Source: a plasmid
DNA: 64,000 nucleotides
Direction: 5' to 3' (one strand)
Sequence record: NZ_CP092205.1
The notes beneath the pieces are model-generated. The model saw only the letters and a list, made by a program, of their open reading frames with translations, was not told the DNA's origin and did not search any database. This document shows positions 10,268-38,559 of this stretch, piece after piece; position 1 is the stretch's first letter; the number at the start of each line of letters is the position of its first letter. The position numbers and the translations under genes were made by a program.

Positions 10268-11592
<1,325 letters not shown>

Positions 11593-12140
11593 TTACCTTC
11601 ATAAACGTACCCATTCATCCTTTAGCGCATCGGTAACACTCTATACCGGAAACATGAGTTACACTTTATTCGTTGTAGTTGTACACAGGTGTTTCGTATT
11701 TCAATACTTTTCCTGTAAATAAATCTTACACAAACGCAATCGAATCTATGAATATGGGCCTGAGGAAAATTATCAAGAATCGAGATTCGTTGCCCAACGA
11801 TAAAGCCGCAGTCAAATTTTTATTTGGCTTTGAATAATATGTCCAAAAAATGGGCTATGCCCATTCAAGATTGGGATGACGAGCGATCCTTAGAGCGAGT
11901 CGCTGAGTTCAAGCGATGAATCAGTTTTCGATTCTTTTCGGAGAGTTACTGAGATTAGATTCGTTTTAAAGTATGTCATTTATACAATATTGCTGACACT
12001 TCAAAGATTGCGGGAACTCCTCTCACAATCTTTGAAAAAATCCGTCGCTATTTGCACTTATTTTTGTAATGAGCAAATTAAACGAAAGAACTTCGTCTAC
12101 AAAGAATACGGGCAATACCTGCCACTCTAATTACACGCGT

Positions 12141-12350
12141 CTATTTTTTACTTAGAATGTCTGAGTCTCGAAGATCTTGCTCCGTGAGGCCTGTGATTTC
12201 CAGGATAGTCTTTAGATCGATCCCTTTTTGAAGCATTTTACCGGCTGTTTCTAGTTTCCCTTTTTCAATACCCTTCTCGATACCCTGGCGCATCCCTTCA
12301 GAAATGAGCCTTTCCGCGGTTGTCATCGTCAATTCCTCATATTGTTCCAA
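12141..12350 (-). CDS. standalone duplicate of Rpn C-terminal domain (RpnS-like small protein)
   Basis: 69 aa, ~75% identical to the last ~75 aa of the upstream Rpn protein ([51 protein letters not shown]); lies in a diverged ~250-bp tandem repeat of the gene's 3' end. Confidence 0.55.
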
Positions 12351-12362
12351 TTTAGATCTGCT

Positions 12363-13325
12363 TTAGAGAAATCCATTTTCCTTGAGGGTCTTTTCGGTAA
12401 GGCCTGTGATTTCCAGGATAGTCTTTAGATCGATCCCTTTCTTTAGCATCTTACCGGCATCTTCCAGTTTCCCTTTTTCAATACCTTTTTCAATGCCCTT
12501 CTCGATACCTTGCTCGATACCCTTCTCGATACCTTGTTGTATCCCTTCCGAAATGAGTCTTTCCGCGGTTGTCATCGTCAATTCCTCATATTGTTCCAAT
12601 TTAGATCGTTGAAGGACTCCCTTCAATTCCGATGGCTTCAAATCTCGAACCCAGTAAATATACAATAACAGTTTCCGTAAGATTGCAACCCTTTTCGATT
12701 CTTCCTCGACTCCAAGTAATAGGGAAAATAACCCCGGTAAGTGAGAAATGAGTTCCAAATCCCCTTCCCGGATTTTTTGAACCACTCCCAGAGTCACTTG
12801 AAACGTGATACTTTCCAACTTCTCCTTCAATTCTATTCCTTTCAAATCGAACAAGTCGATCCTAAAATCCGGAATAAAGTCCTTGAGAATTTCCGTTTCT
12901 TGTTTCGTTAGAATGAATTGTTCCAAAAATCGATCTCCCAATTTCCATTCCTTTTCTCCGTGATAGAATACGAACGGAATGACTACGGAAAGAGGCTCTC
13001 CATTCCTTTGTTGGTTTCGATAGATTTCTGTGAGATATCCGAGTAGTTGGATGTAGATGCTATTTTCTAAATAACTTTTGTGTTCGAAGAGTAAATACAC
13101 GTTGGTCCGATTTCCGGACCTGAGCGGGATTTGGAACAGTAGATCGGTTTGTTCTTGTTTTAATTCTTCGCTTACAAAACTCGATTCGGACAATTCTAAG
13201 TTTTCCAAGTCAAGTAGTTCTACCACTTCCCGCGGGAGTGTGTTTTTGAAGAAAGTGGCTGCCTCTTTTTTGTCTTGAAATGTTTCTCGGATCAATCGAT
13301 CGTGCGGATTGTTCACTTCGGTCAT
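12363..13325 (-). CDS. Rpn/YhgA-like PD-(D/E)XK recombination-promoting nuclease (putative transposase family TIGR01784-like)
   Basis: 320 aa; N-terminal HDRLIRETF...DLLFQIP...YLLFEHKS nuclease motifs; C-terminal (GIEKGIE)n repeat tail typical of Rpn proteins. Confidence 0.7.
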
Positions 13326-13573
13326 CCGATATCTTTGGGATATCGTTTGGGCAGGTCAATTGCATTTAGGAATGTGCTTCTTCTCGGATTTGGCTTTTTT
13401 TCCGGGACAACGAAATAATTTTCTCCCAAAGTTTTTTCGGAATTTCTGAATCATATTTGTTCATTTTATAAATATATTTTTACTCTTCAATAGTAGAAGC
13501 AGTTTTGAGATCGGCTTTAAAAATCACCAAAAAATAAAAGTAACAACTCTAGTGTTAAAATTCAAGATCCATT

Positions 13574-14464
13574 CTATCGGATACGTCGACTAAAAATACT
13601 AGCGACGATTTCCGCCCTTTTAGCTTTATCAATGGATGGATGTCTTATCGTAAAATCATAATGTGCATCCACAATGTTAAGCGTGACATTAGCTTTGGAT
13701 GCGATAAGTTTCAACTGGTACCCGTGATTATCTATGATTCGATACAAACCTAAGACGCCGAAAGAAAAAATTCGGCTTAAAAAAGGCAAAGGCGAACCTT
13801 CCATAACCAATTCTCGAATTTCGAAAGCGTCGTAATGCAAAATCGCGACTGACCACAGAATTGCAAAAATCAATAAACCGAAAGCAGAATAGGAACCTAA
13901 AAAAATAGATCGTAACGGTAAAACGTAGTTGAATACAAGAATGGTTAATAATGCGATCAAGATTCCTGAAAGCATCAAAAAAGAACGAATCCTTTTATCC
14001 CCTCGCTTTTTAATCATAGCATTACCTAATTCCAGGGAACTTTTAATAACAGATAAAAAACCAAACATCATAAGCAAGTGGTAACTAAATAAAGGCGAGA
14101 ACGAATAGTCTGACATATTATCGATCTTTGCATAACCACCGAAAAGAGAAATAAACGAGAAGGTAGGCAAAAGAATATATATTAAAATTGTTCTATAAAG
14201 ATTTAGCTTAAATTTTTTACCGATGATTAAGCATACGACCAAGTCAAGGAAAAGTGAAATGAATGGAATCGGAAATAAAATCCAATTCGCAAATATTTCT
14301 CGAATTGCAATCGGCACTTGCATTCGCATACCGAAGCCGATCATCCAGCCGGAAAGCATTAAACATAAGCCGAGGAAATATTTCTGAACTCTTGCACGCG
14401 GTGGTATGCGGAAAACATAAATTCCAAGGTATAGAATAAAGAATCCGGCTACATAAGTTATCAT
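13574..14464 (-). CDS. polytopic (about 7-TM) membrane protein with short cytoplasmic C-terminal domain
   Basis: 296 aa, 6-7 hydrophobic helices. Confidence 0.5.
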   Translation of the reverse strand: MITYVAGFFILYLGIYVFRIPPRARVQKYFLGLCLMLSGWMIGFGMRMQVPIAIREIFANWILFPIPFISLFLDLVVCLIIGKKFKLNLYRTILIYILLPTFSFISLFGGYAKIDNMSDYSFSPLFSYHLLMMFGFLSVIKSSLELGNAMIKKRGDKRIRSFLMLSGILIALLTILVFNYVLPLRSIFLGSYSAFGLLIFAILWSVAILHYDAFEIRELVMEGSPLPFLSRIFSFGVLGLYRIIDNHGYQLKLIASKANVTLNIVDAHYDFTIRHPSIDKAKRAEIVASIFSRRIR

Positions 14465-14497
14465 TCAAAAATCCTAAAGGGCATACTTGCCACGCCA

Positions 14498-15127
14498 TTA
14501 GAATTCTTTTGACGCAATTTTCTGTAAAGTTTCTTTTTCTAATTCTATAATAGAACAAACACAAAGTTTGCCCTTCAAATATAATCCGGGATAGTATATT
14601 TTTTCATAAAATCTGTGGGATTCGTAGGCACCGAATTTCTTATAAAATAATCCAACACTTTTAAGATTGATTGGATACATTCCATAAACGATTGAGAAAT
14701 CTTTTTCGATACAAAATTTGGCGGCAGCTTTGAAAGTTTCTCTTGCCGCTCTCCAACCCTCTAAACTATGAACAAACGCTAAAGAATTCCAATCGGCGAC
14801 ATTCTCCTCTATTACGGCGTAACGCCGTAATGGAACTTTTTCTTTTTCGTTGTAGATGACTGCATTCTCAATAGGGATAATGTTGTACGGCTTTTTTTCA
14901 ATAATACGCATGACAGAAAGAATCTCGTTATTTTTTTCAAAATAAAACCAGTAAGACCATTCATCGTAATTAAATGCACGCCAGGGAGTGTCGCTATACC
15001 CGGCATTTGCATATGAAACACGTAAGAATTCTTTGATTTTAGAAAGTTCCTCTCTCGATTCATAACCAGAAATCATTTTGATAGATTTATTTAAAATTAA
15101 TATAGACATAATTTTATTATGTCTCAT
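14498..15127 (-). CDS. GNAT-fold acyltransferase-like protein (LuxI/N-acyl amino acid synthase-like)
   Basis: 209 aa; weak pattern similarity to autoinducer synthase/NAS block (KEFLRVSYA...YDEWSYWFYFEKNNEILSVMRII); assignment tentative. Confidence 0.35.
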   Translation of the reverse strand: MRHNKIMSILILNKSIKMISGYESREELSKIKEFLRVSYANAGYSDTPWRAFNYDEWSYWFYFEKNNEILSVMRIIEKKPYNIIPIENAVIYNEKEKVPLRRYAVIEENVADWNSLAFVHSLEGWRAARETFKAAAKFCIEKDFSIVYGMYPINLKSVGLFYKKFGAYESHRFYEKIYYPGLYLKGKLCVCSIIELEKETLQKIASKEF

Positions 15128-15187
15128 TTATATTTAAAATCAAGCAAAGGTTTCTTTTTTTTATAATATTCTAATTTTCCAATCAAT

Positions 15188-15598
15188 CTATTTGTTTAAG
15201 TTTAAAACTAAATTCAATATCAATTCGTATTTATCGGATTTCGTCATTGAAAGGGCCTTTACGATTTTGAATAATTCAGCATTCTTTTTAATTTTGGTAA
15301 AAAATCGAATTTCATCATCGGTAAAATTTCCACCTCTTTTCTTATCTACAAACATATCCGCTTTACCATAGAAAACCCATTCCGCGGAAACATCTGTTAC
15401 ATATTCAAATGTTATCGCCATTGGCCAAGTCAAAGGAATTTTACGATTAGCAATTCTAGAAAGATTACTCGAAGCAATCTTCATGCGGCTTGCAATACTG
15501 TTTTGAGTTTCCCCAAAGTTTTTCTTTAAATATTCGAGGGCATAAGTAAACCGCTCTGCTATTTCCTCGCTAATTATTTCAGTATTATCATGTTCCAT
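15188..15598 (-). CDS. XRE-family HTH transcriptional regulator
   Basis: ETQNSIASRMKIASSNLSRIANRK HTH near N-terminus. Confidence 0.55.
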   Translation of the reverse strand: MEHDNTEIISEEIAERFTYALEYLKKNFGETQNSIASRMKIASSNLSRIANRKIPLTWPMAITFEYVTDVSAEWVFYGKADMFVDKKRGGNFTDDEIRFFTKIKKNAELFKIVKALSMTKSDKYELILNLVLNLNK

Positions 15599-15695
15599 AA
15601 TTTTGCACTATGCATTTTTTTATAATTGACAAAATTGCTTGATGCAATATATAAAATGAATCATCCTAAAAACTAAACATTGTCCTGGTCTATAA

Positions 15696-16469
15696 ATGTC
15701 TGATTTAGATTTAGTAAAATCCGAAACCAAAAATCTATTCGAAAGCCCCGCCGTTTTCAATTCCGCTCGAAAAATTTGTAATAGGGTATTTTTTCTACCA
15801 TTCTTTTTTAAATATTCTAAACAGATTCAAAACACTTTTGATTCTCGGTTACAAAATAATCTGCCAAAGAACATTCAAAATATCGACTTAGAACATATCG
15901 AATTCAAACTAAACTCGTTTCTCTTGAATAAAGACTATAACGACGAAGAGTTTCAAAAACCGGACTTTGCCGCTTTCCCTGGGTTATCAACACACCCAGC
16001 ATCCCATCCTTCGGATAGAAAATTAAATACCGGCTTCACGGATTTTTTGAATTTCAAAAGATTAGAGGAATCCAAACAACTGATTTCTATTTCTAAACTT
16101 CCGCATAATCTACTCAATATTGAGTTCGAATGCGGTTTTAACTCTCTCGCCACTTTCTATCGATCTTGTAATAAATTTTACAATTGTTCTCCCAAGGAAC
16201 TACATAAGTTTTTTTTAGATAATTTATCTGTTCTTAGGAAAAAAAACATATACGAAATAAGCGCAAGAAAATTAAAACTTTTTTCCTTAACTTACCGGAT
16301 TCAAATTTTCTCCTTCCTATTACTCTGGTCAATTCTTAGATCAATTTTAAGAGTCAAACACTCATACAAATTTTATTCGTCAATAGTTAGTTACCACCTA
16401 AATCAACATAATCGAATTCGTTTCCATGATTTTATAAATCAATGGCGCCCAAGTCCTTCCAATGTTTGA
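15696..16469 (+). CDS. AraC-family transcriptional regulator
   Basis: HTH_AraC signature [29 protein letters not shown] in the middle; divergent from 15598 gene. Confidence 0.6.
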
Positions 16470-17370
16470 TATGAATACTTTCGGATTTTATTATGGTGTT
16501 TTTCTTTATTCCTGTGGGGCGACATTAGTCTGTTTTAATTTTATCTTAGGAAATTTAGACAACCCCTGGAATTATTATAAACGCCTTTTATGGATTATTC
16601 CAATTACGATTTTTTTTTCTTATTTTATTCCGAATTTTTATTTTGTATCCATTATTGATATTCTTGGTTTCGGAATTTCTTTATTTACTACCGTCTGGGC
16701 TTTTAGAAAATTATTAATAACTCAAAAGCCGTTTTCTTACTTCAACCTTCCTGTGATTTCCCTCTTCATTTCTATTTGTTTTGTTTTAGATTTTCTTGGC
16801 GCGATTTTCGATAATAAAGATTTCTTACTGATTTCGGAATTGATTTCCGGTTTGGTGATCTGCTACACGGTTATTTTAGAACGGATATTTCCATTTTTGT
16901 TTTGTAAGGTGATCAGCTTAGATTTAGAGAATCCAATTCCAGATCATTTGTCCGAAAGCAAGCATCCTTCGAAACACAATCTATTGGATGGCGTCGACTT
17001 AATCAAAGTCGAAATGAAACTGAATTCTTTTTTAGCGTCCAAAGGTTTTAAAGACGAGGAGCTTAGACTCCCCGATTTCGCGTCAGCCTTAGGTCTTTCC
17101 ACTCATCAGGCCTCTCATTATTTGAACAAGTATCTGAGCATGAGTTATAATGATTTTTTAAATCATCACAGAATCAATGAGGCAATCAATATGCTCCGTA
17201 CCCATTCTAAATTTAATCTTTTAGATATCGCTTTTGAATGTGGATTCAATTCTTCCTCGTCTTTTCATAGGGCTTGCATTAAATTCACGGGAAAATCCCC
17301 TTTTAAACTTAAGAGGTATATTCAGCTGAATTCCGAATCGAATATAGAAGTAGATACTCAAAATACGTAA
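16462..17370 (+). CDS. membrane-anchored AraC-family regulator (4-5 TM N-terminus + AraC HTH)
   Basis: hydrophobic N-terminal 150 aa; C-terminal [28 protein letters not shown]; 8-nt overlap with upstream AraC gene. Confidence 0.6.
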
Positions 17371-17529
17371 ATAACGTGAGTTTCGGCCTAAGAAAGTTTG
17401 GGCGAATCGCTCGCGACCGCGCTTTAACTCAATGTTGCTGCCTACGGTCGCAACATATAATTCGTTTTCGCATTTTGTTATACCGAATTCACGTTAATTT
17501 ATACGAGACTCAGGTTACGAAAGTAATTA

Positions 17530-17985
17530 TCAAAGTTCGCCATAAACAGATGTTGAAGTAAATTGATTGAAATCAAATAATTCGGAAGACTTATTAGCAC
17601 CTGGAATTCCTGTTGAAGTATCGACACGATCAAATCCAGATGCTATAAAAATTTTCGATCCATTAACTAAATTAGCCGTATGTCCCGATCTCTTCGTTTG
17701 CATCTGTCCAGACCCTACAACTGTCATACTTCCTGTATCATATAACTCACAAGAAGAAAGAATAGGAGATCCCGTAAGAATTTGATTCCCCCCACATAAT
17801 ATAATTCTATTTGAGGCAGTAGAGACGGCAGTATGCCCTACCCTAAACTCACTTATATTTCCTACCGAAGAAAATGTATTCAAACCTGAATCATATAATT
17901 CCACTACTTTCGTATTCGATACGAAAGGCGGAGTTGTTACTTTATAAGTAACCACCCAACTAACCACACCTTCCGCTAATTTCAA
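17530..17985 (-). pseudogene. 3' fragment of kelch-repeat lipoprotein gene split by IS66 element
   Basis: first 13 codons are IS-derived, the rest (YKVTTPPF...) continues in frame the N-terminal fragment at 20354-21134. Confidence 0.7.
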
Positions 17986-18006
17986 AAATCTGTTAAAATC
18001 CTTTTA

Positions 18007-18294
18007 ATGAAAAAACCGAATATCGATTGGCAAAAAGAGTTTGAAGATTTTTCCAAAAGCGGACTTTCCCAGCCTCAGTATTGTAAAGAAAAAGGGATTA
18101 AATATACGACGTTTCGTTACCATTGGGAGAGACGATTAAAAAAACAGGACAAAGACGGCTTTGTAGAAGTGCCTCACTCAGCATTAAACGTTAGCTCTGC
18201 TTCAGGGTCTGAATTTTTGACTCTAAAAATAGATTCGTCAGGTAAGGCGCATCTTCAAATGAATCTTCAGTTTAGTCTTGGTATATGGAGCTAA
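18007..18294 (+). CDS. IS66 Orf1 (TnpA-like HTH protein)
   Basis: 95 aa; position and size typical of IS66 orf1. Confidence 0.6.
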   Translation: MKKPNIDWQKEFEDFSKSGLSQPQYCKEKGIKYTTFRYHWERRLKKQDKDGFVEVPHSALNVSSASGSEFLTLKIDSSGKAHLQMNLQFSLGIWS

Positions 18295-18632
18295 ACCCGG
18301 GTAGCAGAAAAGTGTATTTGAGACCTGGGGTCACAGATTTAAGGAAGTCAATCAATACACTTGCGATCATCGTAGAGGGCAGAATGAAGAAGGACCCATA
18401 TTCAGAGAGCCTATTTTTATTCTGCAATCGTAAGAAGGACAAACTGAAAATGCTTTATTGGGACAAGAGTGGATTTTGTCTTTGGCAGAAGAGATTGGAA
18501 GAAAGCAAATTTCCGTGGCCGAACACGGAGGAAGAAGTTCAAAAGATTCCCGTGGAAAGATTTCATTGGCTATTGAACGGAATTGATTTTTTCAAGGAAC
18601 ACAAGAAACTAAAATATCAGAAAGTAAGCTGA
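18285..18632 (+). CDS. IS66 Orf2 (TnpB)
   Basis: 115 aa; LRPGVTDLRKSINTLAIIVEG...LFLFCNRKKDKLKMLYWDKSGFCLWQKRLE matches IS66 TnpB family. Confidence 0.75.
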   Translation: MELNPGSRKVYLRPGVTDLRKSINTLAIIVEGRMKKDPYSESLFLFCNRKKDKLKMLYWDKSGFCLWQKRLEESKFPWPNTEEEVQKIPVERFHWLLNGIDFFKEHKKLKYQKVS

Positions 18633-18674
18633 AACGATTGACTAAAACTTTGTGTTGATTACAACTTCATCATC

Positions 18675-20336
<1,662 letters not shown>

Positions 20337-21203
20337 TCGCTTACCTTTATAACCTCCGGTTACTAAAACATTTCCATTAGATAAAAGATTCGCCACATGC
20401 AAAGTTCGAGAAACACTTAAACTTCCTGATGAGGAAAATGTCAACGTGGTCGGATCAAAAAGCTCAGAAGTAGCGACAGTAGCTTGGCCATTATCCAATC
20501 CGCCAATGATTAAAATTTTACCATTGTTTAATTTGGTAGAAGTATGAAGGCAACGATTGAAATTTAAATTACCAGCAGGAGCAATTGTAAGGTTAGTAGG
20601 ATCAAATAGTTCTACACTTCTTAAAATAGAATCTGCCTTTCCTCCTGCAATAAGCACTCTACCATCATTCAAAAGATCTAAACTAAAATCTGAACGGCCT
20701 TGATTTAAATTTGGCCCACTAATTATAGAATTTGTTAAAGGATCGTAAATTTCAGTTTGAATTAAAGGAGGAGCAGCATTCGACGCCGCGCTTAACGGAC
20801 TAGGATTACCGCCAACGATAAAGACTCTTCCATCCAATAGACGAATAGATTTAAAATTTGAACGCGCAAACCTCATGCTATTTACTTGAAATATAGTATT
20901 TTGAATAGGATCAAATTGAAAGATATCATTATATACTTTGAAACCATTTTGACCGCCTATTATCAAAATATTATTCCCGATCGGGACAGAAACATGGCCA
21001 TATCTACCATATTTCTGCGCATTAATTAACAAAAGAGCAAGTAAACCTAATTTTTTAGTATCATCGTCATCTGATGGATTACATTGCAAAAAAAGAAATG
21101 CCCCAATCAGAAATTTAACAAATAAGTATTTCATACAACTACCGCGTTTTTATTTATAATTTATTATATCAATATTCAATTTTTTGAAAATTTTAAGACC
21201 TAT

Positions 21204-21941
21204 CTAATTCGGTGGTTCAACAGACTTGTTGTCCTCATCTAAGATCAGTCCAGAGCTGCTTTCATTTTCAGAAGGCGGCGGAATTGTTGGAGTCGCAGGT
21301 TCATCCGGAGCTGGCAATGGGCATGCTGGGGAAGGATAAACAATACATTCTCCGCACTGAATAACCCCTTGAACCATTTGACAAGTCGGGTTATCGTTTT
21401 TTGGTTTATTATTATCATTCGTGGTTCCATTTCCCCCACTTTTTAAATACGGATTTGAAAAATAAATGATTTCCATAATATGGCTTCGCAGACTTCTTCT
21501 TTTTTCTCTACTTTTCAGTGCTTGGCCATTTTGATTATTACGAGTTGTTCTTTGTGTCCATTTTAGAATGCCCTTATAAGCGTTTTCTAAACCTTTCGTT
21601 ATATCTTTCGCATTAACTTTCTTTCCTATATAGCTACGATGAAAATCTTTTCCAATACTTTTTGTACTAGGTCTATTTCCATTATGAAAATCCTTCCCGA
21701 TCGCATGACCAACAATCCGATTCACCATGTGCATCAAACCGGCAACGCTTACATGACCGCTCGGATCTCGATAACTCACCGGATTTCCAGCTCCGTCCGT
21801 GATCATCGTAATTGAGCCCAAATGATCCGGATGATAGAAATACATTCCGGTTACCGACATTCCTCCCACACTTCCACCGCCTGTCATTCCTACTCCCGGG
21901 TTTTGAATACTAGAAACTCCAGGCGCAACATTCGCTCCCAT
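21204..21941 (-). CDS. orphan rhs C-terminal toxin cassette 2 (rhs-CT2)
   Basis: N-terminus GDKEGDPPWLLAMGAN...TGMYFYHPDHLGSITMITDGAGNP matches main Rhs 39073-43446 near its core end, then a divergent toxin tail; open frame extends to 21980 without ATG. Confidence 0.65.
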   Translation of the reverse strand: MGANVAPGVSSIQNPGVGMTGGGSVGGMSVTGMYFYHPDHLGSITMITDGAGNPVSYRDPSGHVSVAGLMHMVNRIVGHAIGKDFHNGNRPSTKSIGKDFHRSYIGKKVNAKDITKGLENAYKGILKWTQRTTRNNQNGQALKSREKRRSLRSHIMEIIYFSNPYLKSGGNGTTNDNNKPKNDNPTCQMVQGVIQCGECIVYPSPACPLPAPDEPATPTIPPPSENESSSGLILDEDNKSVEPPN

Positions 21942-22011
21942 TGCAAGGAGCCAAGGAGGATCTCCTTCTTTATCGCCATTTCACCATCCACTAATTTAAT
22001 TCTTACGAGAC

Positions 22012-22581
22012 TCAACTGAAACAAATATTAGTTAAAAAAATATTAACCGCTAATCCTATAACTTCGTTTTGTTTTTTTTCGACGTTTGAAAAAGGATACA
22101 ATATTCCACCCCATAGAGAATAGTATGCACTCCATGGAATTTTGATATCCAAGGCATGTATTTTCTGATTTTGCTTTGAATCAAATACAGCCATAGATAT
22201 GTTGGAAATTCGATTAGAATGAATTGGAAATATTCCCGCTGAGAGTGTCCCAACTATATTAAAAAAATTAAATGGTATGCTTGCCTCTTCCGAATATATC
22301 ATCTTATATTTAAGATTATTTAATTTCTTATTTGAAGATAGTTTAGTTTCTATATATGTTACCATCGTATCCCTATTTATATTATCAAAAAATCTAAATC
22401 TATCTTTTCTATTTTCATTTATTTTTTGATCTGGAAATTCCAATTTAATTTCTGAAAAAGACATACAGGAATTCGTGATATTTGAATTAACCAGATGATC
22501 ATAATTCTTAATTCTTCCTGTAAATACGCAGCCATGGAAAATGAAAATTGAAATGATTAACGTGCTAACTTTGTGAGTCAT
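22012..22581 (-). CDS. lipoprotein, candidate immunity protein for rhs-CT1
   Basis: 189 aa; signal peptide + lipobox IFIFHGC; starts at stop of CT1. Confidence 0.45.
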   Translation of the reverse strand: MTHKVSTLIISIFIFHGCVFTGRIKNYDHLVNSNITNSCMSFSEIKLEFPDQKINENRKDRFRFFDNINRDTMVTYIETKLSSNKKLNNLKYKMIYSEEASIPFNFFNIVGTLSAGIFPIHSNRISNISMAVFDSKQNQKIHALDIKIPWSAYYSLWGGILYPFSNVEKKQNEVIGLAVNIFLTNICFS

Positions 22582-23331
22582 CTAAAACATTCCTCCCGAA
22601 GACATTCCAATTCCAAAAGCCCCACCACCCGTGCCTGTTGTAGTTCCAACTACGCAGTTATAGGTCATTTGATAAGTTGTTATTGGATCATTAGTTGATA
22701 ATGAACCTAAGTTCTTTTGAAAATGATTATTCATAAAAACATATGCACACGCTTGTGAATTAGGAATATGTCGACGGGAATTAGAATAATCTATTAGATC
22801 TTCTGCATCTCTCCCAATTTTAGCCAACTGATAAGCGATAATGTATGGGTTTTTGACAATTATTATAGTTACAATGCCTGCGACTGCGTCGCTTAAATCA
22901 ATTGCCCATTTAACCATTTTCCGTTTAGAATCAAGCTTCTCTTGATCCATGGCATTTCCCCACAGATAACCATCATACATACCGTCCATAGTTCCCGTTG
23001 TTAGATATCCTAAAATAGCTCCCTTAGTTGAGCTTTTCATTCCTCTAAGTTTCGTTGGATTATGAAAGAACGTTCCATTATGGAAAAAACGATTTCCGCC
23101 AGTCGAAATTCCATTTGCACTCAATCTTTTGTCCATGTCCTTCGAATCAAAATCCTTCCCGATCACATGACCGATCATCCGATTCACCATGTGCATCAAA
23201 CCGGCACCGCTAACATGACCACTCGGATCACGATAACTTACTGGATTCCCATCCATATACATATAACGATTCATACCATTCACATTAGTCGGCACAACAA
23301 CAGAATCCGCTTGCAAGAACCTTCCTAACAT
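22582..23331 (-). CDS. orphan rhs C-terminal toxin cassette 1 (rhs-CT1)
   Basis: homology block SGLYYYKSRYCEPMLGRFLQADS...GNPVSYRDPSGH to main Rhs core end (TGLYYYKARYYEPMLGRFLQADS...GGNPIDRIDSTGY); open frame to 23379; divergent tail. Confidence 0.65.
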   Translation of the reverse strand: MLGRFLQADSVVVPTNVNGMNRYMYMDGNPVSYRDPSGHVSGAGLMHMVNRMIGHVIGKDFDSKDMDKRLSANGISTGGNRFFHNGTFFHNPTKLRGMKSSTKGAILGYLTTGTMDGMYDGYLWGNAMDQEKLDSKRKMVKWAIDLSDAVAGIVTIIIVKNPYIIAYQLAKIGRDAEDLIDYSNSRRHIPNSQACAYVFMNNHFQKNLGSLSTNDPITTYQMTYNCVVGTTTGTGGGAFGIGMSSGGMF

Positions 23332-23669
23332 TGGCTCGCAATACCTCGATTTGTAATAATATAAACCGGACTCTTTCTGTTATTGTAATTTTTGCGAGGC
23401 TCAGGTAAATTATTGCTTTCAACCGGCAAAGACTCACACCATACTTCTCTAGGTGCATTCCTATAGAAACTCGCAAAAACCATACGATCTTTCCCGCAAG
23501 ACTTAAATAAATCCACATCATCAACAAAAAAGGATGATCTCGCCTTACGTGGCACTTTTACCTTTTTTACTTTACTCTCATCAAAATTGTCGACAAGCCG
23601 TACGCTATAAGTTCTACAAGATAGCCCAAGTAATATTAACGCCAATAAATACAATTTAATGCACTTCAT
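23325..23669 (-). CDS. small lipoprotein (MKCIKLYLLALILLGLSC...)
   Basis: internal Met of 157-aa ORF gives SPII-type signal; 3' end overlaps rhs-CT1 homology region in another frame. Confidence 0.4.
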   Translation of the reverse strand: MKCIKLYLLALILLGLSCRTYSVRLVDNFDESKVKKVKVPRKARSSFFVDDVDLFKSCGKDRMVFASFYRNAPREVWCESLPVESNNLPEPRKNYNNRKSPVYIITNRGIASQC

Positions 23670-23973
23670 TTTCGGCTTCCTCACATTCAATTCCAACTGT
23701 GTGTGGACAAAAAAGCAATAATGTGCTTCCACAGATAATTCCATTAAAAAAACTATCGTGCATATTGATAACTCGTATATTACTACTTGGGCAAACATTC
23801 GCTCTATTAAGACTGTTATCTAAAGATACCCAACCTGCTAAAAAGAACGCTTTAAAATAGATTGTTTCAGATTTTCTTGGCTTTTTACTGTCCAAAACTA
23901 TATATCGATGATTCACACAAGAAATGCTTAATAAGCCTGTGGCAATTGATAACACTGCAATAATTTTTTTCAT
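23656..23973 (-). CDS. small lipoprotein (lipobox LLSISC), orphan immunity candidate
   Basis: 105 aa with N-terminal signal peptide/lipobox. Confidence 0.45.
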   Translation of the reverse strand: MKKIIAVLSIATGLLSISCVNHRYIVLDSKKPRKSETIYFKAFFLAGWVSLDNSLNRANVCPSSNIRVINMHDSFFNGIICGSTLLLFCPHTVGIECEEAENEVH

Positions 23974-24303
23974 TTTTCCTCTTACTATAGTTATTAATCC
24001 ATCGCGCTTGACGAAAGTGCCTCTTCGAGGTTACGTCTCTGAAGCACCTGTGGCAAGGAATTTAATCTATACGCCTTTTAATTTATCTATATTGCCGGAG
24101 GCGTAGCCTACTGATTCCTATAAAATAGAGTAACCGTTAATTTGAGCACAAATCCGCGTTTAGACGCAGAATTTTGGACACTCTATTATGTAGTAATTAG
24201 TAATTTCTATATTTTAGCTATTTTACGAATGCTTAGACTTATCACACTATGCTTTCCCGTAATTGAAATAAGTGATCGTCCCTGAAAAAATAAGATTATA
24301 AAT

Positions 24304-24504
24304 TTAAAAGTTGCGAAAAAAGGAAAATTGATCGAGAAACAAAAAGAAAGCTCGGAATGGCTTATTGAAATTACACCCTGAAGCAACTAAGATTGCATTG
24401 ATACGATCTTCTTCTTTGCTTTTGAGAAAATTACGAATCATATTGTGATCGTATTTGAAATGAGAAATGATTGACTCAATGGCAGATCTTTTGTTCATCC
24501 ACAT
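24304..24504 (-). pseudogene. transposase C-terminal remnant (IS4/IS5/IS1380-type DDE_Tnp_1 tail)
   Basis: RSAIESIISHFKYDHNMIRNFLKSKEEDRINAILVASGCNFNK resembles conserved C-terminus of DDE transposases; no upstream catalytic part. Confidence 0.4.
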
Positions 24505-24511
24505 CCTTTGT

Positions 24512-24543
<32 letters not shown>

Positions 24544-24682
24544 TTGGATTTTCTACTTTTCGCTCTATGTCTCGTTTTACGCAACCCAAATACGTTTTTA
24601 ACCGTTTCGTCTCCTTGTTGGCCCGTTTACTTTGTCTTGCATAAAGGCAACATAATTTAAAAGTGATTCTTTAAAAGAAAAT

Positions 24683-24952
24683 TTAAAATGGATGACTTGT
24701 ATCACAATCATTCACACAGGTTTGCTTTGCATCAACGCAAAACAAAGGATTATAGAATATGGAAAGAATTGGATTTTGACTTGTGCTTGTCTGCGGATTA
24801 CTGTCCAACAAAGTCTTAAGCAATTCTGCACCCATCAAGCAATCCATGACAGCAGTGTTGCATGAATTATCCAGGTAGCATTTGTGCCTTGGTGAAATGT
24901 ATTCACTGCAACTAATTCCAAATAACAAACTCAAAATTAGAATTCTCTTCAT
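24683..24952 (-). CDS. small Cys-rich lipoprotein, candidate immunity protein for main Rhs C-terminal toxin
   Basis: 89 aa; lipobox LLFGISC; immediately downstream of rhs 3' end (in copy 2). Confidence 0.45.
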   Translation of the reverse strand: MKRILILSLLFGISCSEYISPRHKCYLDNSCNTAVMDCLMGAELLKTLLDSNPQTSTSQNPILSIFYNPLFCVDAKQTCVNDCDTSHPF

Positions 24953-25024
24953 TACTCTCTCGGCTCCCTATATATACTTTTGAAAAAGATATATTAAAAA
25001 TTTAAATTTTTCCAGAAACAATAA

Positions 25025-25198
25025 TTAGCGTGATCCAAAACATTCATTCGACCCGTAAACCGCATCTACACTATAATAAATTCCCGCAATCTCAGATGCC
25101 TCAAAAGCTTCAGCTAACGAGAAAACGACCCCCTCGCCAGTAGCCAAAGCAAAAAGTGATATCGCTACAGATGCACAACCTGCAATTCTTTTTCTTTC
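25025..25198 (-). pseudogene. duplicated last ~58 codons of rhs gene at tandem-duplication junction
   Basis: identical to 39073-39246; fused to IS481 interior at 25199. Confidence 0.7.
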
Positions 25199-25200
25199 TT

Positions 25201-25640
25201 CGCCCAATTGTGCTTACCGAAGGCCAATTTTTAACCTTTGGGAATTTACCTTTCAATGAAGCTAAAAGTTTTCGCGCTCCCCAATTCGGATGTCTATCCC
25301 GCGCGCTGATAACGAGTTGTACGACATTTTGTTTTGTAGTCTTCGGGTGGCTTTTGGGAGTCTTTGGTTTATCCTTTAATCCATCGATCCCAAACAACTC
25401 ATATTGACTTAGGTATTTGTAACCCGTAACTCGGCTGATCCCAAATTCTTTGCAAAGATCCGTGATGGACCAGCCCCTTGCTTCCAGGCTACTACAAACT
25501 TCATTCTTTCTTGATGCACACAAGTCTCCTTCCAAGGCATTGGGTTTCCTCCAATGCCAAGATTTTGCAAGAGACATAATCCGTTCAAAAGATTTGTAAA
25601 GGATGTAATGAGTTAGTTTTGTAAGCGATGAAATGAGTAC
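25201..25640 (-). mobile_element. partial IS481-family copy (5' 440 bp incl. transposase N-terminus with 1-bp frameshift)
   Basis: identical to 11152-11592 except C4 vs C5 run at 25473-25476. Confidence 0.75.
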
Positions 25641-26188
25641 TTACCTTCATAAACGTACCCATTCATCCTTTAGCGCATCGGTAACACTCTATACCGGAAA
25701 CATGAGTTACACTTTATTCGTTGTAGTTGTACACAGGTGTTTCGTATTTCAATACTTTTCCTGTAAATAAATCTTACACAAACGCAATCGAATCTATGAA
25801 TATGGGCCTGAGGAAAATTATCAAGAATCGAGATTCGTTGCCCAACGATAAAGCCGCAGTCAAATTTTTATTTGGCTTTGAATAATATGTCCAAAAAATG
25901 GGCTATGCCCATTCAAGATTGGGATGACGAGCGATCCTTAGAGCGAGTCGCTGAGTTCAAGCGATGAATCAGTTTTCGATTCTTTTCGGAGAGTTACTGA
26001 GATTAGATTCGTTTTAAAGTATGTCATTTATACAATATTGCTGACACTTCAAAGATTGCGGGAACTCCTCTCACAATCTTTGAAAAAATCCGTCGCTATT
26101 TGCACTTATTTTTGTAATGAGCAAATTAAACGAAAGAACTTCGTCTACAAAGAATACGGGCAATACCTGCCACTCTAATTACACGCGT

Positions 26189-26398
26189 CTATTTTTTACT
26201 TAGAATGTCTGAGTCTCGAAGATCTTGCTCCGTGAGGCCTGTGATTTCCAGGATAGTCTTTAGATCGATCCCTTTTTGAAGCATTTTACCGGCTGTTTCT
26301 AGTTTCCCTTTTTCAATACCCTTCTCGATACCCTGGCGCATCCCTTCAGAAATGAGCCTTTCCGCGGTTGTCATCGTCAATTCCTCATATTGTTCCAA
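26189..26398 (-). CDS. copy 2 of RpnS-like small protein
   Basis: identical to 12141-12350. Confidence 0.55.
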
Positions 26399-26410
26399 TT
26401 TAGATCTGCT

Positions 26411-27373
26411 TTAGAGAAATCCATTTTCCTTGAGGGTCTTTTCGGTAAGGCCTGTGATTTCCAGGATAGTCTTTAGATCGATCCCTTTCTTTAGCATCTT
26501 ACCGGCATCTTCCAGTTTCCCTTTTTCAATACCTTTTTCAATGCCCTTCTCGATACCTTGCTCGATACCCTTCTCGATACCTTGTTGTATCCCTTCCGAA
26601 ATGAGTCTTTCCGCGGTTGTCATCGTCAATTCCTCATATTGTTCCAATTTAGATCGTTGAAGGACTCCCTTCAATTCCGATGGCTTCAAATCTCGAACCC
26701 AGTAAATATACAATAACAGTTTCCGTAAGATTGCAACCCTTTTCGATTCTTCCTCGACTCCAAGTAATAGGGAAAATAACCCCGGTAAGTGAGAAATGAG
26801 TTCCAAATCCCCTTCCCGGATTTTTTGAACCACTCCCAGAGTCACTTGAAACGTGATACTTTCCAACTTCTCCTTCAATTCTATTCCTTTCAAATCGAAC
26901 AAGTCGATCCTAAAATCCGGAATAAAGTCCTTGAGAATTTCCGTTTCTTGTTTCGTTAGAATGAATTGTTCCAAAAATCGATCTCCCAATTTCCATTCCT
27001 TTTCTCCGTGATAGAATACGAACGGAATGACTACGGAAAGAGGCTCTCCATTCCTTTGTTGGTTTCGATAGATTTCTGTGAGATATCCGAGTAGTTGGAT
27101 GTAGATGCTATTTTCTAAATAACTTTTGTGTTCGAAGAGTAAATACACGTTGGTCCGATTTCCGGACCTGAGCGGGATTTGGAACAGTAGATCGGTTTGT
27201 TCTTGTTTTAATTCTTCGCTTACAAAACTCGATTCGGACAATTCTAAGTTTTCCAAGTCAAGTAGTTCTACCACTTCCCGCGGGAGTGTGTTTTTGAAGA
27301 AAGTGGCTGCCTCTTTTTTGTCTTGAAATGTTTCTCGGATCAATCGATCGTGCGGATTGTTCACTTCGGTCAT
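26411..27373 (-). CDS. copy 2 of Rpn/YhgA-like nuclease
   Basis: identical to 12363-13325. Confidence 0.7.
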
Positions 27374-27621
27374 CCGATATCTTTGGGATATCGTTTGGGC
27401 AGGTCAATTGCATTTAGGAATGTGCTTCTTCTCGGATTTGGCTTTTTTTCCGGGACAACGAAATAATTTTCTCCCAAAGTTTTTTCGGAATTTCTGAATC
27501 ATATTTGTTCATTTTATAAATATATTTTTACTCTTCAATAGTAGAAGCAGTTTTGAGATCGGCTTTAAAAATCACCAAAAAATAAAAGTAACAACTCTAG
27601 TGTTAAAATTCAAGATCCATT

Positions 27622-28512
27622 CTATCGGATACGTCGACTAAAAATACTAGCGACGATTTCCGCCCTTTTAGCTTTATCAATGGATGGATGTCTTATCGTA
27701 AAATCATAATGTGCATCCACAATGTTAAGCGTGACATTAGCTTTGGATGCGATAAGTTTCAACTGGTACCCGTGATTATCTATGATTCGATACAAACCTA
27801 AGACGCCGAAAGAAAAAATTCGGCTTAAAAAAGGCAAAGGCGAACCTTCCATAACCAATTCTCGAATTTCGAAAGCGTCGTAATGCAAAATCGCGACTGA
27901 CCACAGAATTGCAAAAATCAATAAACCGAAAGCAGAATAGGAACCTAAAAAAATAGATCGTAACGGTAAAACGTAGTTGAATACAAGAATGGTTAATAAT
28001 GCGATCAAGATTCCTGAAAGCATCAAAAAAGAACGAATCCTTTTATCCCCTCGCTTTTTAATCATAGCATTACCTAATTCCAGGGAACTTTTAATAACAG
28101 ATAAAAAACCAAACATCATAAGCAAGTGGTAACTAAATAAAGGCGAGAACGAATAGTCTGACATATTATCGATCTTTGCATAACCACCGAAAAGAGAAAT
28201 AAACGAGAAGGTAGGCAAAAGAATATATATTAAAATTGTTCTATAAAGATTTAGCTTAAATTTTTTACCGATGATTAAGCATACGACCAAGTCAAGGAAA
28301 AGTGAAATGAATGGAATCGGAAATAAAATCCAATTCGCAAATATTTCTCGAATTGCAATCGGCACTTGCATTCGCATACCGAAGCCGATCATCCAGCCGG
28401 AAAGCATTAAACATAAGCCGAGGAAATATTTCTGAACTCTTGCACGCGGTGGTATGCGGAAAACATAAATTCCAAGGTATAGAATAAAGAATCCGGCTAC
28501 ATAAGTTATCAT
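27622..28512 (-). CDS. copy 2 of 7-TM membrane protein
   Basis: identical to 13574-14464. Confidence 0.5.
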   Translation of the reverse strand: MITYVAGFFILYLGIYVFRIPPRARVQKYFLGLCLMLSGWMIGFGMRMQVPIAIREIFANWILFPIPFISLFLDLVVCLIIGKKFKLNLYRTILIYILLPTFSFISLFGGYAKIDNMSDYSFSPLFSYHLLMMFGFLSVIKSSLELGNAMIKKRGDKRIRSFLMLSGILIALLTILVFNYVLPLRSIFLGSYSAFGLLIFAILWSVAILHYDAFEIRELVMEGSPLPFLSRIFSFGVLGLYRIIDNHGYQLKLIASKANVTLNIVDAHYDFTIRHPSIDKAKRAEIVASIFSRRIR

Positions 28513-28545
28513 TCAAAAATCCTAAAGGGCATACTTGCCACGCCA

Positions 28546-29175
28546 TTAGAATTCTTTTGACGCAATTTTCTGTAAAGTTTCTTTTTCTAATTCTATAATA
28601 GAACAAACACAAAGTTTGCCCTTCAAATATAATCCGGGATAGTATATTTTTTCATAAAATCTGTGGGATTCGTAGGCACCGAATTTCTTATAAAATAATC
28701 CAACACTTTTAAGATTGATTGGATACATTCCATAAACGATTGAGAAATCTTTTTCGATACAAAATTTGGCGGCAGCTTTGAAAGTTTCTCTTGCCGCTCT
28801 CCAACCCTCTAAACTATGAACAAACGCTAAAGAATTCCAATCGGCGACATTCTCCTCTATTACGGCGTAACGCCGTAATGGAACTTTTTCTTTTTCGTTG
28901 TAGATGACTGCATTCTCAATAGGGATAATGTTGTACGGCTTTTTTTCAATAATACGCATGACAGAAAGAATCTCGTTATTTTTTTCAAAATAAAACCAGT
29001 AAGACCATTCATCGTAATTAAATGCACGCCAGGGAGTGTCGCTATACCCGGCATTTGCATATGAAACACGTAAGAATTCTTTGATTTTAGAAAGTTCCTC
29101 TCTCGATTCATAACCAGAAATCATTTTGATAGATTTATTTAAAATTAATATAGACATAATTTTATTATGTCTCAT
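28546..29175 (-). CDS. copy 2 of GNAT-fold acyltransferase-like protein
   Basis: identical to 14498-15127. Confidence 0.35.
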   Translation of the reverse strand: MRHNKIMSILILNKSIKMISGYESREELSKIKEFLRVSYANAGYSDTPWRAFNYDEWSYWFYFEKNNEILSVMRIIEKKPYNIIPIENAVIYNEKEKVPLRRYAVIEENVADWNSLAFVHSLEGWRAARETFKAAAKFCIEKDFSIVYGMYPINLKSVGLFYKKFGAYESHRFYEKIYYPGLYLKGKLCVCSIIELEKETLQKIASKEF

Positions 29176-29235
29176 TTATATTTAAAATCAAGCAAAGGTT
29201 TCTTTTTTTTATAATATTCTAATTTTCCAATCAAT

Positions 29236-29646
29236 CTATTTGTTTAAGTTTAAAACTAAATTCAATATCAATTCGTATTTATCGGATTTCGTCATTGAAA
29301 GGGCCTTTACGATTTTGAATAATTCAGCATTCTTTTTAATTTTGGTAAAAAATCGAATTTCATCATCGGTAAAATTTCCACCTCTTTTCTTATCTACAAA
29401 CATATCCGCTTTACCATAGAAAACCCATTCCGCGGAAACATCTGTTACATATTCAAATGTTATCGCCATTGGCCAAGTCAAAGGAATTTTACGATTAGCA
29501 ATTCTAGAAAGATTACTCGAAGCAATCTTCATGCGGCTTGCAATACTGTTTTGAGTTTCCCCAAAGTTTTTCTTTAAATATTCGAGGGCATAAGTAAACC
29601 GCTCTGCTATTTCCTCGCTAATTATTTCAGTATTATCATGTTCCAT
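29236..29646 (-). CDS. copy 2 of XRE HTH regulator
   Basis: identical to 15188-15598. Confidence 0.55.
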   Translation of the reverse strand: MEHDNTEIISEEIAERFTYALEYLKKNFGETQNSIASRMKIASSNLSRIANRKIPLTWPMAITFEYVTDVSAEWVFYGKADMFVDKKRGGNFTDDEIRFFTKIKKNAELFKIVKALSMTKSDKYELILNLVLNLNK

Positions 29647-29743
29647 AATTTTGCACTATGCATTTTTTTATAATTGACAAAATTGCTTGATGCAATATAT
29701 AAAATGAATCATCCTAAAAACTAAACATTGTCCTGGTCTATAA

Positions 29744-30517
29744 ATGTCTGATTTAGATTTAGTAAAATCCGAAACCAAAAATCTATTCGAAAGCCCCGCC
29801 GTTTTCAATTCCGCTCGAAAAATTTGTAATAGGGTATTTTTTCTACCATTCTTTTTTAAATATTCTAAACAGATTCAAAACACTTTTGATTCTCGGTTAC
29901 AAAATAATCTGCCAAAGAACATTCAAAATATCGACTTAGAACATATCGAATTCAAACTAAACTCGTTTCTCTTGAATAAAGACTATAACGACGAAGAGTT
30001 TCAAAAACCGGACTTTGCCGCTTTCCCTGGGTTATCAACACACCCAGCATCCCATCCTTCGGATAGAAAATTAAATACCGGCTTCACGGATTTTTTGAAT
30101 TTCAAAAGATTAGAGGAATCCAAACAACTGATTTCTATTTCTAAACTTCCGCATAATCTACTCAATATTGAGTTCGAATGCGGTTTTAACTCTCTCGCCA
30201 CTTTCTATCGATCTTGTAATAAATTTTACAATTGTTCTCCCAAGGAACTACATAAGTTTTTTTTAGATAATTTATCTGTTCTTAGGAAAAAAAACATATA
30301 CGAAATAAGCGCAAGAAAATTAAAACTTTTTTCCTTAACTTACCGGATTCAAATTTTCTCCTTCCTATTACTCTGGTCAATTCTTAGATCAATTTTAAGA
30401 GTCAAACACTCATACAAATTTTATTCGTCAATAGTTAGTTACCACCTAAATCAACATAATCGAATTCGTTTCCATGATTTTATAAATCAATGGCGCCCAA
30501 GTCCTTCCAATGTTTGA
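29744..30517 (+). CDS. copy 2 of AraC-family regulator
   Basis: identical to 15696-16469. Confidence 0.6.
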
Positions 30518-31418
30518 TATGAATACTTTCGGATTTTATTATGGTGTTTTTCTTTATTCCTGTGGGGCGACATTAGTCTGTTTTAATTTTATCTTAGGAA
30601 ATTTAGACAACCCCTGGAATTATTATAAACGCCTTTTATGGATTATTCCAATTACGATTTTTTTTTCTTATTTTATTCCGAATTTTTATTTTGTATCCAT
30701 TATTGATATTCTTGGTTTCGGAATTTCTTTATTTACTACCGTCTGGGCTTTTAGAAAATTATTAATAACTCAAAAGCCGTTTTCTTACTTCAACCTTCCT
30801 GTGATTTCCCTCTTCATTTCTATTTGTTTTGTTTTAGATTTTCTTGGCGCGATTTTCGATAATAAAGATTTCTTACTGATTTCGGAATTGATTTCCGGTT
30901 TGGTGATCTGCTACACGGTTATTTTAGAACGGATATTTCCATTTTTGTTTTGTAAGGTGATCAGCTTAGATTTAGAGAATCCAATTCCAGATCATTTGTC
31001 CGAAAGCAAGCATCCTTCGAAACACAATCTATTGGATGGCGTCGACTTAATCAAAGTCGAAATGAAACTGAATTCTTTTTTAGCGTCCAAAGGTTTTAAA
31101 GACGAGGAGCTTAGACTCCCCGATTTCGCGTCAGCCTTAGGTCTTTCCACTCATCAGGCCTCTCATTATTTGAACAAGTATCTGAGCATGAGTTATAATG
31201 ATTTTTTAAATCATCACAGAATCAATGAGGCAATCAATATGCTCCGTACCCATTCTAAATTTAATCTTTTAGATATCGCTTTTGAATGTGGATTCAATTC
31301 TTCCTCGTCTTTTCATAGGGCTTGCATTAAATTCACGGGAAAATCCCCTTTTAAACTTAAGAGGTATATTCAGCTGAATTCCGAATCGAATATAGAAGTA
31401 GATACTCAAAATACGTAA
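30510..31418 (+). CDS. copy 2 of membrane-anchored AraC regulator
   Basis: identical to 16462-17370. Confidence 0.6.
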
Positions 31419-31995
31419 ATAACGTGAGTTTCGGCCTAAGAAAGTTTGGGCGAATCGCTCGCGACCGCGCTTTAACTCAATGTTGCTGCCTACGGTCGCA
31501 ACATATAATTCGTTTTCGCATTTTGTTATACCGAATTCACGTTAATTTATACGAGACTCAGGTTACGAAAGTAATTATCAAAGTTCGCCATAAACAGATG
31601 TTGAAGTAAATTGATTGAAATCAAATAATTCGGAAGACTTATTAGCACCTGGAATTCCTGTTGAAGTATCGACACGATCAAATCCAGATGCTATAAAAAT
31701 TTTCGATCCATTAACTAAATTAGCCGTATGTCCCGATCTCTTCGTTTGCATCTGTCCAGACCCTACAACTGTCATACTTCCTGTATCATATAACTCACAA
31801 GAAGAAAGAATAGGAGATCCCGTAAGAATTTGATTCCCCCCACATAATATAATTCTATTTGAGGCAGTAGAGACGGCAGTATGCCCTACCCTAAACTCAC
31901 TTATATTTCCTACCGAAGAAAATGTATTCAAACCTGAATCATATAATTCCACTACTTTCGTATTCGATACGAAAGGCGGAGTTGTTACTTTATAA

Positions 31996-34393
<2,398 letters not shown>

Positions 34394-35251
34394 TTTATAA
34401 CCTCCGGTTACTAAAACATTTCCATTAGATAAAAGATTCGCCACATGCAAAGTTCGAGAAACACTTAAACTTCCTGATGAGGAAAATGTCAACGTGGTCG
34501 GATCAAAAAGCTCAGAAGTAGCGACAGTAGCTTGGCCATTATCCAATCCGCCAATGATTAAAATTTTACCATTGTTTAATTTGGTAGAAGTATGAAGGCA
34601 ACGATTGAAATTTAAATTACCAGCAGGAGCAATTGTAAGGTTAGTAGGATCAAATAGTTCTACACTTCTTAAAATAGAATCTGCCTTTCCTCCTGCAATA
34701 AGCACTCTACCATCATTCAAAAGATCTAAACTAAAATCTGAACGGCCTTGATTTAAATTTGGCCCACTAATTATAGAATTTGTTAAAGGATCGTAAATTT
34801 CAGTTTGAATTAAAGGAGGAGCAGCATTCGACGCCGCGCTTAACGGACTAGGATTACCGCCAACGATAAAGACTCTTCCATCCAATAGACGAATAGATTT
34901 AAAATTTGAACGCGCAAACCTCATGCTATTTACTTGAAATATAGTATTTTGAATAGGATCAAATTGAAAGATATCATTATATACTTTGAAACCATTTTGA
35001 CCGCCTATTATCAAAATATTATTCCCGATCGGGACAGAAACATGGCCATATCTACCATATTTCTGCGCATTAATTAACAAAAGAGCAAGTAAACCTAATT
35101 TTTTAGTATCATCGTCATCTGATGGATTACATTGCAAAAAAAGAAATGCCCCAATCAGAAATTTAACAAATAAGTATTTCATACAACTACCGCGTTTTTA
35201 TTTATAATTTATTATATCAATATTCAATTTTTTGAAAATTTTAAGACCTAT

Positions 35252-35989: not shown

Positions 35990-36059
35990 TGCAAGGAGCC
36001 AAGGAGGATCTCCTTCTTTATCGCCATTTCACCATCCACTAATTTAATTCTTACGAGAC

Positions 36060-37379: not shown

Positions 37380-37717
37380 TGGCTCGCAATACCTCGATTT
37401 GTAATAATATAAACCGGACTCTTTCTGTTATTGTAATTTTTGCGAGGCTCAGGTAAATTATTGCTTTCAACCGGCAAAGACTCACACCATACTTCTCTAG
37501 GTGCATTCCTATAGAAACTCGCAAAAACCATACGATCTTTCCCGCAAGACTTAAATAAATCCACATCATCAACAAAAAAGGATGATCTCGCCTTACGTGG
37601 CACTTTTACCTTTTTTACTTTACTCTCATCAAAATTGTCGACAAGCCGTACGCTATAAGTTCTACAAGATAGCCCAAGTAATATTAACGCCAATAAATAC
37701 AATTTAATGCACTTCAT
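37373..37717 (-). CDS. copy 2 of small lipoprotein (MKCIKL...)
   Basis: identical to 23325-23669. Confidence 0.4.
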   Translation of the reverse strand: MKCIKLYLLALILLGLSCRTYSVRLVDNFDESKVKKVKVPRKARSSFFVDDVDLFKSCGKDRMVFASFYRNAPREVWCESLPVESNNLPEPRKNYNNRKSPVYIITNRGIASQC

Positions 37718-38552: not shown

Positions 38553-38559
38553 CCTTTGT

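Follow-up and report, generated by a model that had tools for sequence, protein, structure and literature searches.

In a plasmid of the pathogenic spirochaete Leptospira weilii, a gene encoding a full-length Rpn nuclease (RpnL) is followed directly by a small open reading frame (ORF) that repeats the C-terminal tail of the nuclease. Taken as a whole, the explanation that we favour, with a probability of about 70%, is that this small ORF is a gene of the "RpnSs" type, that the arrangement had a single origin in L. weilii, and that the gene is expressed without being the chief brake on the adjacent nuclease. The pair lies in a window of 64,000 nucleotides (the whole stretch of DNA that was analysed) from the plasmid sequence record NZ_CP092205.1. 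While the preliminary description of this DNA proposed that a detached RpnS would be a variation on the theme, separately encoded downstream tail copies have already been described in E. coli as "RpnSs" (ypaA/rpnESs after rpnE, and rpnCSs after rpnC; Zhong et al. 2023, PMC10400941), and the window pair is, by its sequence, a further example of that arrangement.

The small ORF is a tandem duplicate of the rpn 3′ end

Both ORFs are present in the ORF list as previously reported. The rpnL gene (12363..13325, minus strand; 320 aa) encodes an Rpn/YhgA-like PD-(D/E)XK nuclease and ends in a TAA stop at 12363-12365. Its N-terminal nuclease domain (aa 6-208, Pfam PF04754 envelope) occupies 12702..13310 (-), and the attached tail, which is the predicted internal RpnS of 70 aa with six four-residue units, occupies 12363..12575 (-). 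Within this tail lies a tract of 12-nt repeats coding for the four-residue units GIEK/GIEQ (12472..12535 (-); Tandem Repeats Finder: period 12, 5.3 copies). At the duplication junction (12351..12365 (-)) the TAA is followed in frame by AGC AGA TCT AAA (S-R-S-K), and then by the RpnSs-type detached tail ORF (12141..12350 (-)), which has 69 aa, a TTG start and three four-residue units; the likelier translated form has 61 aa and begins at the ATG at 12326-12324 (12141..12326 (-)). Straight-through translation was used to confirm that the small ORF is in frame with rpn, with only the TAA and the S-R-S-K codons in between, so that the gap from the rpn stop to the small ORF is 12 nt.

That the last ~250 nt of rpn are tandemly repeated, as had been noted, is borne out by head-to-tail direct repeats shared with the small ORF. 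Positions 12259-12358 match 12508-12607 with 91% identity at a spacing of 249 nt, and 12181-12286 match 12394-12499 with 87% identity at a spacing of 213 nt; the difference between the two spacings, 36 nt, equals three 12-nt units. A 46-nt landmark had been reported in two copies, and exact copies do exist, although at positions that differ by 1-2 nt from those first given: they lie at 12313-12358 and 12562-12607, and again at 26361-26406 and 26610-26655, where zero matches would be expected by chance. At the protein level, the 69-aa ORF and the rpn tail are identical in 54/78 columns (69%; E = 1e-30), with one 12-residue gap, or in 54/66 (82%) of the ungapped columns, which makes the earlier figure of about 75% a fair one. 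In their final ~14 codons the attached and detached tails are of different types, the detached tail ending in SDILSKK. The window contains two copies of the pair, 11150-25202 being repeated in tandem at 25199-39250; the second copies of rpnL (26411..27373 (-); tblastn 100% identity, window self-blastn) and of the 69-aa ORF (26189..26398 (-); window self-comparison) are identical to the first.

We propose that the 69-aa ORF arose as a tandem in-frame duplicate of the rpn 3′ end that took with it an internal ribosome-binding site and start, the duplicated unit starting ~12 codons ahead of the internal start and ending a few bases past the stop. Such an array probably arose once in the L. weilii lineage, to be remodelled later by unequal crossing-over (yielding one or two detached tails), by slippage of the 12-nt repeats, and by deletion or fusion.

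Domain content and predicted fold of RpnL and the detached tail

The assignment of the large gene to the Rpn/YhgA nucleases holds, the 320-aa protein matching PF04754 (Transposase_31; E = 1.9e-62, aa 6-208, 210.9 bits against a cut-off of 21) and TIGR01784 (E = 7.9e-45, 153.8 bits against a cut-off of 52.1). In a pairwise alignment, D9, D61, E81 and K83 of RpnL stand opposite D11, D63, E82 and Q84 of E. coli RpnA, residues whose mutation abolished all phenotypes (PMC5350276). Judged from this alignment, RpnL carries residues equivalent to those needed for RpnA activity, and with K83 in place of Q84 it has a canonical E-x-K motif. The close relatives of RpnL are all Leptospira Rpn proteins, those of L. 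weilii and L. mayottensis being 89-91% identical, and the lengths of its homologues step by four residues (300, 304, 308, 312 and 316 aa). The six GIEK/GIEQ-type units of the RpnL C-terminal tail lie in a long helix; in an AlphaFold 2 (AF2) model of the attached tail, this first helix spans residues 3-45 and is followed by two short helices.

The small ORF was likewise correctly recognised as a detached copy of the Rpn C-terminal domain. It matches TIGR01784 positions 212-272 (E = 5e-13) and RpnA residues 239-289, and PF27070 (HTH_Rpn_C) is the precomputed domain on the records of identical and near-identical proteins. One of these, annotated in L. weilii as a 'hypothetical protein' (P0121 / WP_239248395.1), has exactly the sequence of the 69-aa ORF (100% identity). 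In a Pfam scan that did not include PF27070 the tail itself gave only sub-threshold HTH_7 matches, and PADLOC matched the tail only weakly, to a 'putative invertase' model, and returned no matches for the genes adjoining the rpn array.

The AF2 model of the 61-aa form has a mean pLDDT of 83, with helices at residues 3-33, 38-45 and 49-54. Its top Foldseek match in the PDB is E. coli RpnA-S (7TH0; probability 1.00, 38% identity, E = 0.08), with a TM-score of 0.73 normalised to target length. Thus, as modelled, the detached tail would adopt a compact three-helix RpnA-S-like fold with a long first helix, through which the 61-aa protein may dimerise. RpnA-S was found by the fold search alone; it was not among the matches when the PDB was searched by sequence with full-length RpnL.

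Tail arrays across Leptospira

To compare tails, four-residue units were counted between ...ISEG and KLE... in each array. The window has six attached and three detached units, and the corresponding numbers are five and three in L001a, in which the detached copy is frameshifted, and seven and three in L002. Two further arrays have two detached tails each: L003 (plasmid CP092210), with four attached units followed by detached tails of five and three, and L038 (plasmid pLiSL17), with five attached units followed by detached tails of five and three. At L039-L041 the tails are single and there are no detached tails. The L038 set of 5/5/3 is present in three segmental copies on pLiSL17, and the proteins encoded by its first detached tail and its attached tail are identical; some detached tails are thus cognate. 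The detached ORF is intact in 4/5 independent L. weilii arrays; the frameshift in L001a implies that its loss is tolerated.

A common junction, in which the TAA stop is followed at once by AGC(A/C)GATCTAAATTGG, was found in every L. weilii array examined (the window, L001, L002, L003 and L038), while single-tail rpn genes read on as TAAaatcgaattc in its place. Other Leptospira species, each represented by one genome, have single tails, save for a decayed double array in L. alexanderi (L011; NZ_AHMT02000059.1, 3001-5900). There, two tandem frameshifted rpn genes are each followed by a short one-unit detached tail that lies 113 nt downstream in a different frame. Because this junction is unlike that of L. 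weilii, the L. alexanderi array probably had an independent origin.

A fused form was also identified at a second locus in L001 (L001b/P0003; 307 aa), in which the nuclease domain is joined straight to an SDILSKK-type tail. The locus shares its flanks with the window, and the DNA of the nuclease-domain region is 98.7% identical. These data fit both possible orders, with the array preceding the fusion or a single gene preceding the array. Another route to encoding the tail domain by itself is seen in P0147 (L. weilii serovar Ranarum; 115 aa), where an unrelated N-terminal segment is joined to an Rpn-type tail (…TEQDLRDHGIDF).

Signals for expression of the detached tail

In E. coli, M244 is the translation start of RpnA-S and codons K240-E241 contain its ribosome-binding site, as shown by mutation (PMC10400941). 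By pairwise alignment, RpnL M251 falls opposite RpnA M244, and E247-E248 opposite K240-E241. In the DNA, this internal RpnS start is the ATG at 12575-12573 (M251), with GAGGAA upstream at 12582-12587, giving GAGGAA-TTGACG-ATG. The motif occurs in the attached and detached tails alike; in the latter, the ATG lies at 12326-12324 and GAGGAA at 12333-12338, GAGG being separated from the ATG by 8 nt. Of the 39 Leptospira tails compared, 31 have ATG and 8 have GTG at the start position, with no other valine codon, and a GAGGA motif lies upstream of the start in all except one (38/39), which has AAGGA. Annotations of other L. weilii genomes include the 61-aa form (P0126, P0127). From these features we infer two products, a 70-aa internal RpnS (ATG 12575) and a 61-aa detached protein (ATG 12326).

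In a consensus scan, a weak terminator-like hairpin with a T-rich tail was found at 12123-12111 on the minus strand (12111..12123), 18 nt past the stop of the detached tail, and no terminator-like site was found between rpn and the small ORF. A hairpin after the small ORF, with none between the genes, fits co-transcription, the hairpin being only a weak consensus match. Taking these signals together, the small ORF is probably co-transcribed with rpn and translated. An internal promoter was considered and set aside, as the best matches in a consensus scan scored 9 of 12 (including one at 12859-12830 (-) inside rpn) and were too weak; an RNA element was likewise rejected as an explanation, Rfam having given no credible match in 11000-14000.

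A serious rival to an expressed gene, if an unlikely one in our judgement, is an inert relic: a leftover of recombination at a hypervariable gene end, lacking effective translation and in slow decay. This would fit the frameshift in the L001a orthologue, the decay of the L. alexanderi arrays (L011), the single tails of most Leptospira species, the annotation of E. coli ypaA as a pseudogene by NCBI, and a region rich in IS elements and segmental duplications. Inertness is harder to square with an ORF that is intact in four of the five L. weilii arrays and has kept its ribosome-binding site and ATG, with the detection by tagging of translation of the E. coli counterpart RpnESs (PMC10400941), and with an excess of silent over amino-acid-changing differences. 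Between strains, pN/pS of the detached tails ranges from 0 to 0.4, on small counts; the L002 and L003 detached tails differ by 6.5 silent and 4.5 amino-acid-changing differences, where the neutral expectation is about 1:3.5. This low pN/pS could also come from gene conversion by the selected attached tails, and not from selection on the detached ORF.

A mismatch in repeat number separates the detached tail from its neighbour

The useful point of these arrays is a mismatch: the terminal detached tail has three units in 5/5 arrays, while the attached tails have four to seven. In E. coli, RpnS proteins block RpnL, and RpnC-L is blocked only by an RpnS of equal repeat number, a one-unit difference having abolished inhibition (PMC10400941, Fig. 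4D); according to a published commentary, a repeat mismatch prevents complex formation. Under this specificity rule, a detached copy of three units should not inhibit a neighbour that carries four to seven. The rule itself rests on E. coli RpnC and on a one-unit difference, and may not transfer to Leptospira. In the window, the detached tail has three units against the six of the adjacent RpnL, and in the AF2 models its first helix has 31 residues against 43 in the attached tail. Since the detached helix is shorter by 12 residues (three units), the cognate inhibitor would be the internal RpnS (ATG 12575), which is matched by construction because its sequence is common to RpnL.

The preliminary description had raised the possibility that the detached tail is an extra antitoxin, which would bind and restrain the adjacent 320-aa Rpn. 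We regard such a role as doubtful. It has on its side the E. coli precedent, in which RpnS blocks RpnL and RpnESs is translated (PMC10400941), together with the intact ORF, the retained ribosome-binding site and ATG, the low pN/pS, the RpnA-S-like predicted fold, and the presence in L038 of a detached and an attached tail with exactly equal repeat numbers. Set against these, the terminal detached tail, with three units, is unmatched in every array seen (attached units 6, 5, 7, 4 and 5), a single-repeat difference was enough to abolish RpnC inhibition (PMC10400941), and the internal RpnS already provides a perfectly matched antitoxin.

In the explanation that we favour, an RpnSs-type gene that is not the main brake, the detached copy would be at most an RpnS of a second specificity, or a spare tail that recombination could fuse to the nuclease domain, and the recombination that diversifies Rpn tails would both have produced the array as a side effect and act upon it. 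The mismatch makes the question of what RpnSs copies are for a simple matter of co-expression, with no new kind of system involved.

More speculative, and to our mind improbable, is a role for the array as a working store of alternative tails, or for the mismatched tail in trans. In the first case, recombination in the identical ~60-nt head of all tails would swap, fuse, expand and delete cassettes, re-setting the specificity of RpnL/RpnS pairing, and might be promoted by the Rpn nuclease itself; were this true, it would represent cassette-based diversification of a toxin-antitoxin or defence system. In the second, the mismatched tail would act on the RpnL of a co-resident Leptospira plasmid, in plasmid competition or cross-immunity. 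A census of pLiSL17 found no RpnL with a three-unit SDILSKK-type tail that could be the trans match for the detached tail; it covered the plasmid except for its fourth annotated rpn gene, which the search pattern missed, and left chromosomal copies aside.

Comparison with known RpnS and RpnSs systems

The E. coli RpnSs genes were inferred to have originated independently from their respective upstream genes and to have been lost by deletion or fusion (PMC10400941). The rpnE-ypaA pair resembles that of the window in having a small gene right after the rpn stop, which encodes the C-terminal domain a second time and in frame: the K-12 sequence reads ...IPNCH*KERLMTIAERL..., in frame past a single stop. 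In both systems the duplication takes in the internal ribosome-binding site and start, and the unit number of the detached copy differs from that of the attached tail, ypaA having one unit (KLEG) more than the rpnE tail and the window copy three fewer, so that the mismatch is larger in the Leptospira window. The loss that occurs in E. coli when the nuclease domain becomes fused to the downstream copy has a counterpart in P0003/L001b. In contrast to E. coli, Leptospira belongs to the Spirochaetota, the locus is plasmid-associated, and arrays have up to two detached tails. The C-terminal end of the terminal detached tail in Leptospira is also of a type unlike that of the attached tail, whereas each E. 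coli copy groups with the tail upstream of it. The window pair thus extends the RpnSs arrangement from E. coli to the plasmid-borne rpn of a pathogenic spirochaete, and the Leptospira arrays show that up to two detached tails are possible.

The intragenic RpnS of E. coli (RpnA-S, 7TH0) has a homologous domain of three helices, with the repeats in the long first helix, and the positions of its start codon and ribosome-binding site align with those found here. The detached tail differs from it in lying outside rpn, where it is no longer obliged to co-evolve with RpnL, and in its unmatched repeat number. Standalone small proteins with DUF4351 (PF14261) have also been reported as separately encoded and RpnS-like (PMC10400941). 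The 69-aa ORF differs from these in that the Pfam scan (E <= 1) gave it no PF14261 match, the domain recorded for its relatives being PF27070 (HTH_Rpn_C). By analogy, the arrays may also be likened to the orphan toxin modules of rhs/cdiA, which are likewise spare C-terminal cassettes placed downstream with a conserved 5′ recombination handle; unlike those modules, the rpn cassette would be a regulatory or oligomerisation domain and not a toxin, and there is neither an immunity gene nor homology.

The in-frame layout raises the possibility that read-through or suppression of the stop codon could generate an Rpn with two tail domains, since a single TAA separates the ORFs here, as it does in K-12 rpnE-ypaA, L003 and L038. 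We rejected this as very improbable: a junction would fall in frame by chance one time in three, and the L. weilii arrays all inherit one and the same junction; the L. alexanderi detached tails lie 113 nt off in another frame; and no read-through signal was found, TAA being an efficient stop. Misassembly of the tandem tail from a repetitive gene end, which the near-perfect 14-kb duplication in the window might have suggested, its sole difference being a homopolymer length of the kind typical of long-read assemblies, is next to impossible and was rejected, as an array with the identical junction is present in four or more further independent assemblies, complete plasmids among them.

The 14-kb duplication and the plasmid neighbourhood

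Window self-blastn places the pair within a 14,048-bp head-to-tail tandem duplication (11150-25202 and 25199-39250), whose copies differ only in a C5 versus C4 homopolymer (11429 versus 25477) and meet at a junction with a 4-nt TTCG microhomology. Its left end cuts an IS481-family transposase ORF at 10317..11540 (-), of which a truncated copy lies at 25110..25577. The duplication is either very recent or an artefact of long-read assembly. Three GenBank accessions on a single 133,952-bp L. weilii contig correspond to the small ORF protein, suggesting that the source replicon has three copies of the small ORF. Further genes in the 14-kb unit encode an intact IS66-family transposase, a Kelch-repeat protein and two AraC-type regulators (18675-20336 (+), 20223-21134 (-) and 15696-17370 (+)).

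Just downstream of the detached tail, and at the same position in L001, lies an ORF at 11679-11837 (+) (…NAIESMNMGLRKIIKNRDSLPNDKAAVKFLF), which we take, as an impression only, to be a C-terminal remnant of an IS256/mutator-family transposase. On the other side, at 13574-15127 (-), rpn adjoins genes for a ~209-aa protein without a family match and a ~300-aa HisKA_7TM membrane protein without a kinase domain. These two are usually found together with a small HTH regulator and occur also at L001, L003 and L038-L042; the trio adjoining rpn is conserved on plasmids of L. weilii, L. mayottensis and other Leptospira, in an orientation to rpn that varies.

The 170-kb L. weilii plasmid pLiSL17 (NZ_CP092204.1) contains, at L044-L047, segmental repeats of 15-17 kb, each with an rpn gene and two detached tails. 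Its rpn arrays adjoin RHS toxin arrays with orphan C-terminal and immunity modules, and the plasmid also carries many type II toxin-antitoxin genes, a phage portal gene, and a reverse transcriptase beside a restriction endonuclease.
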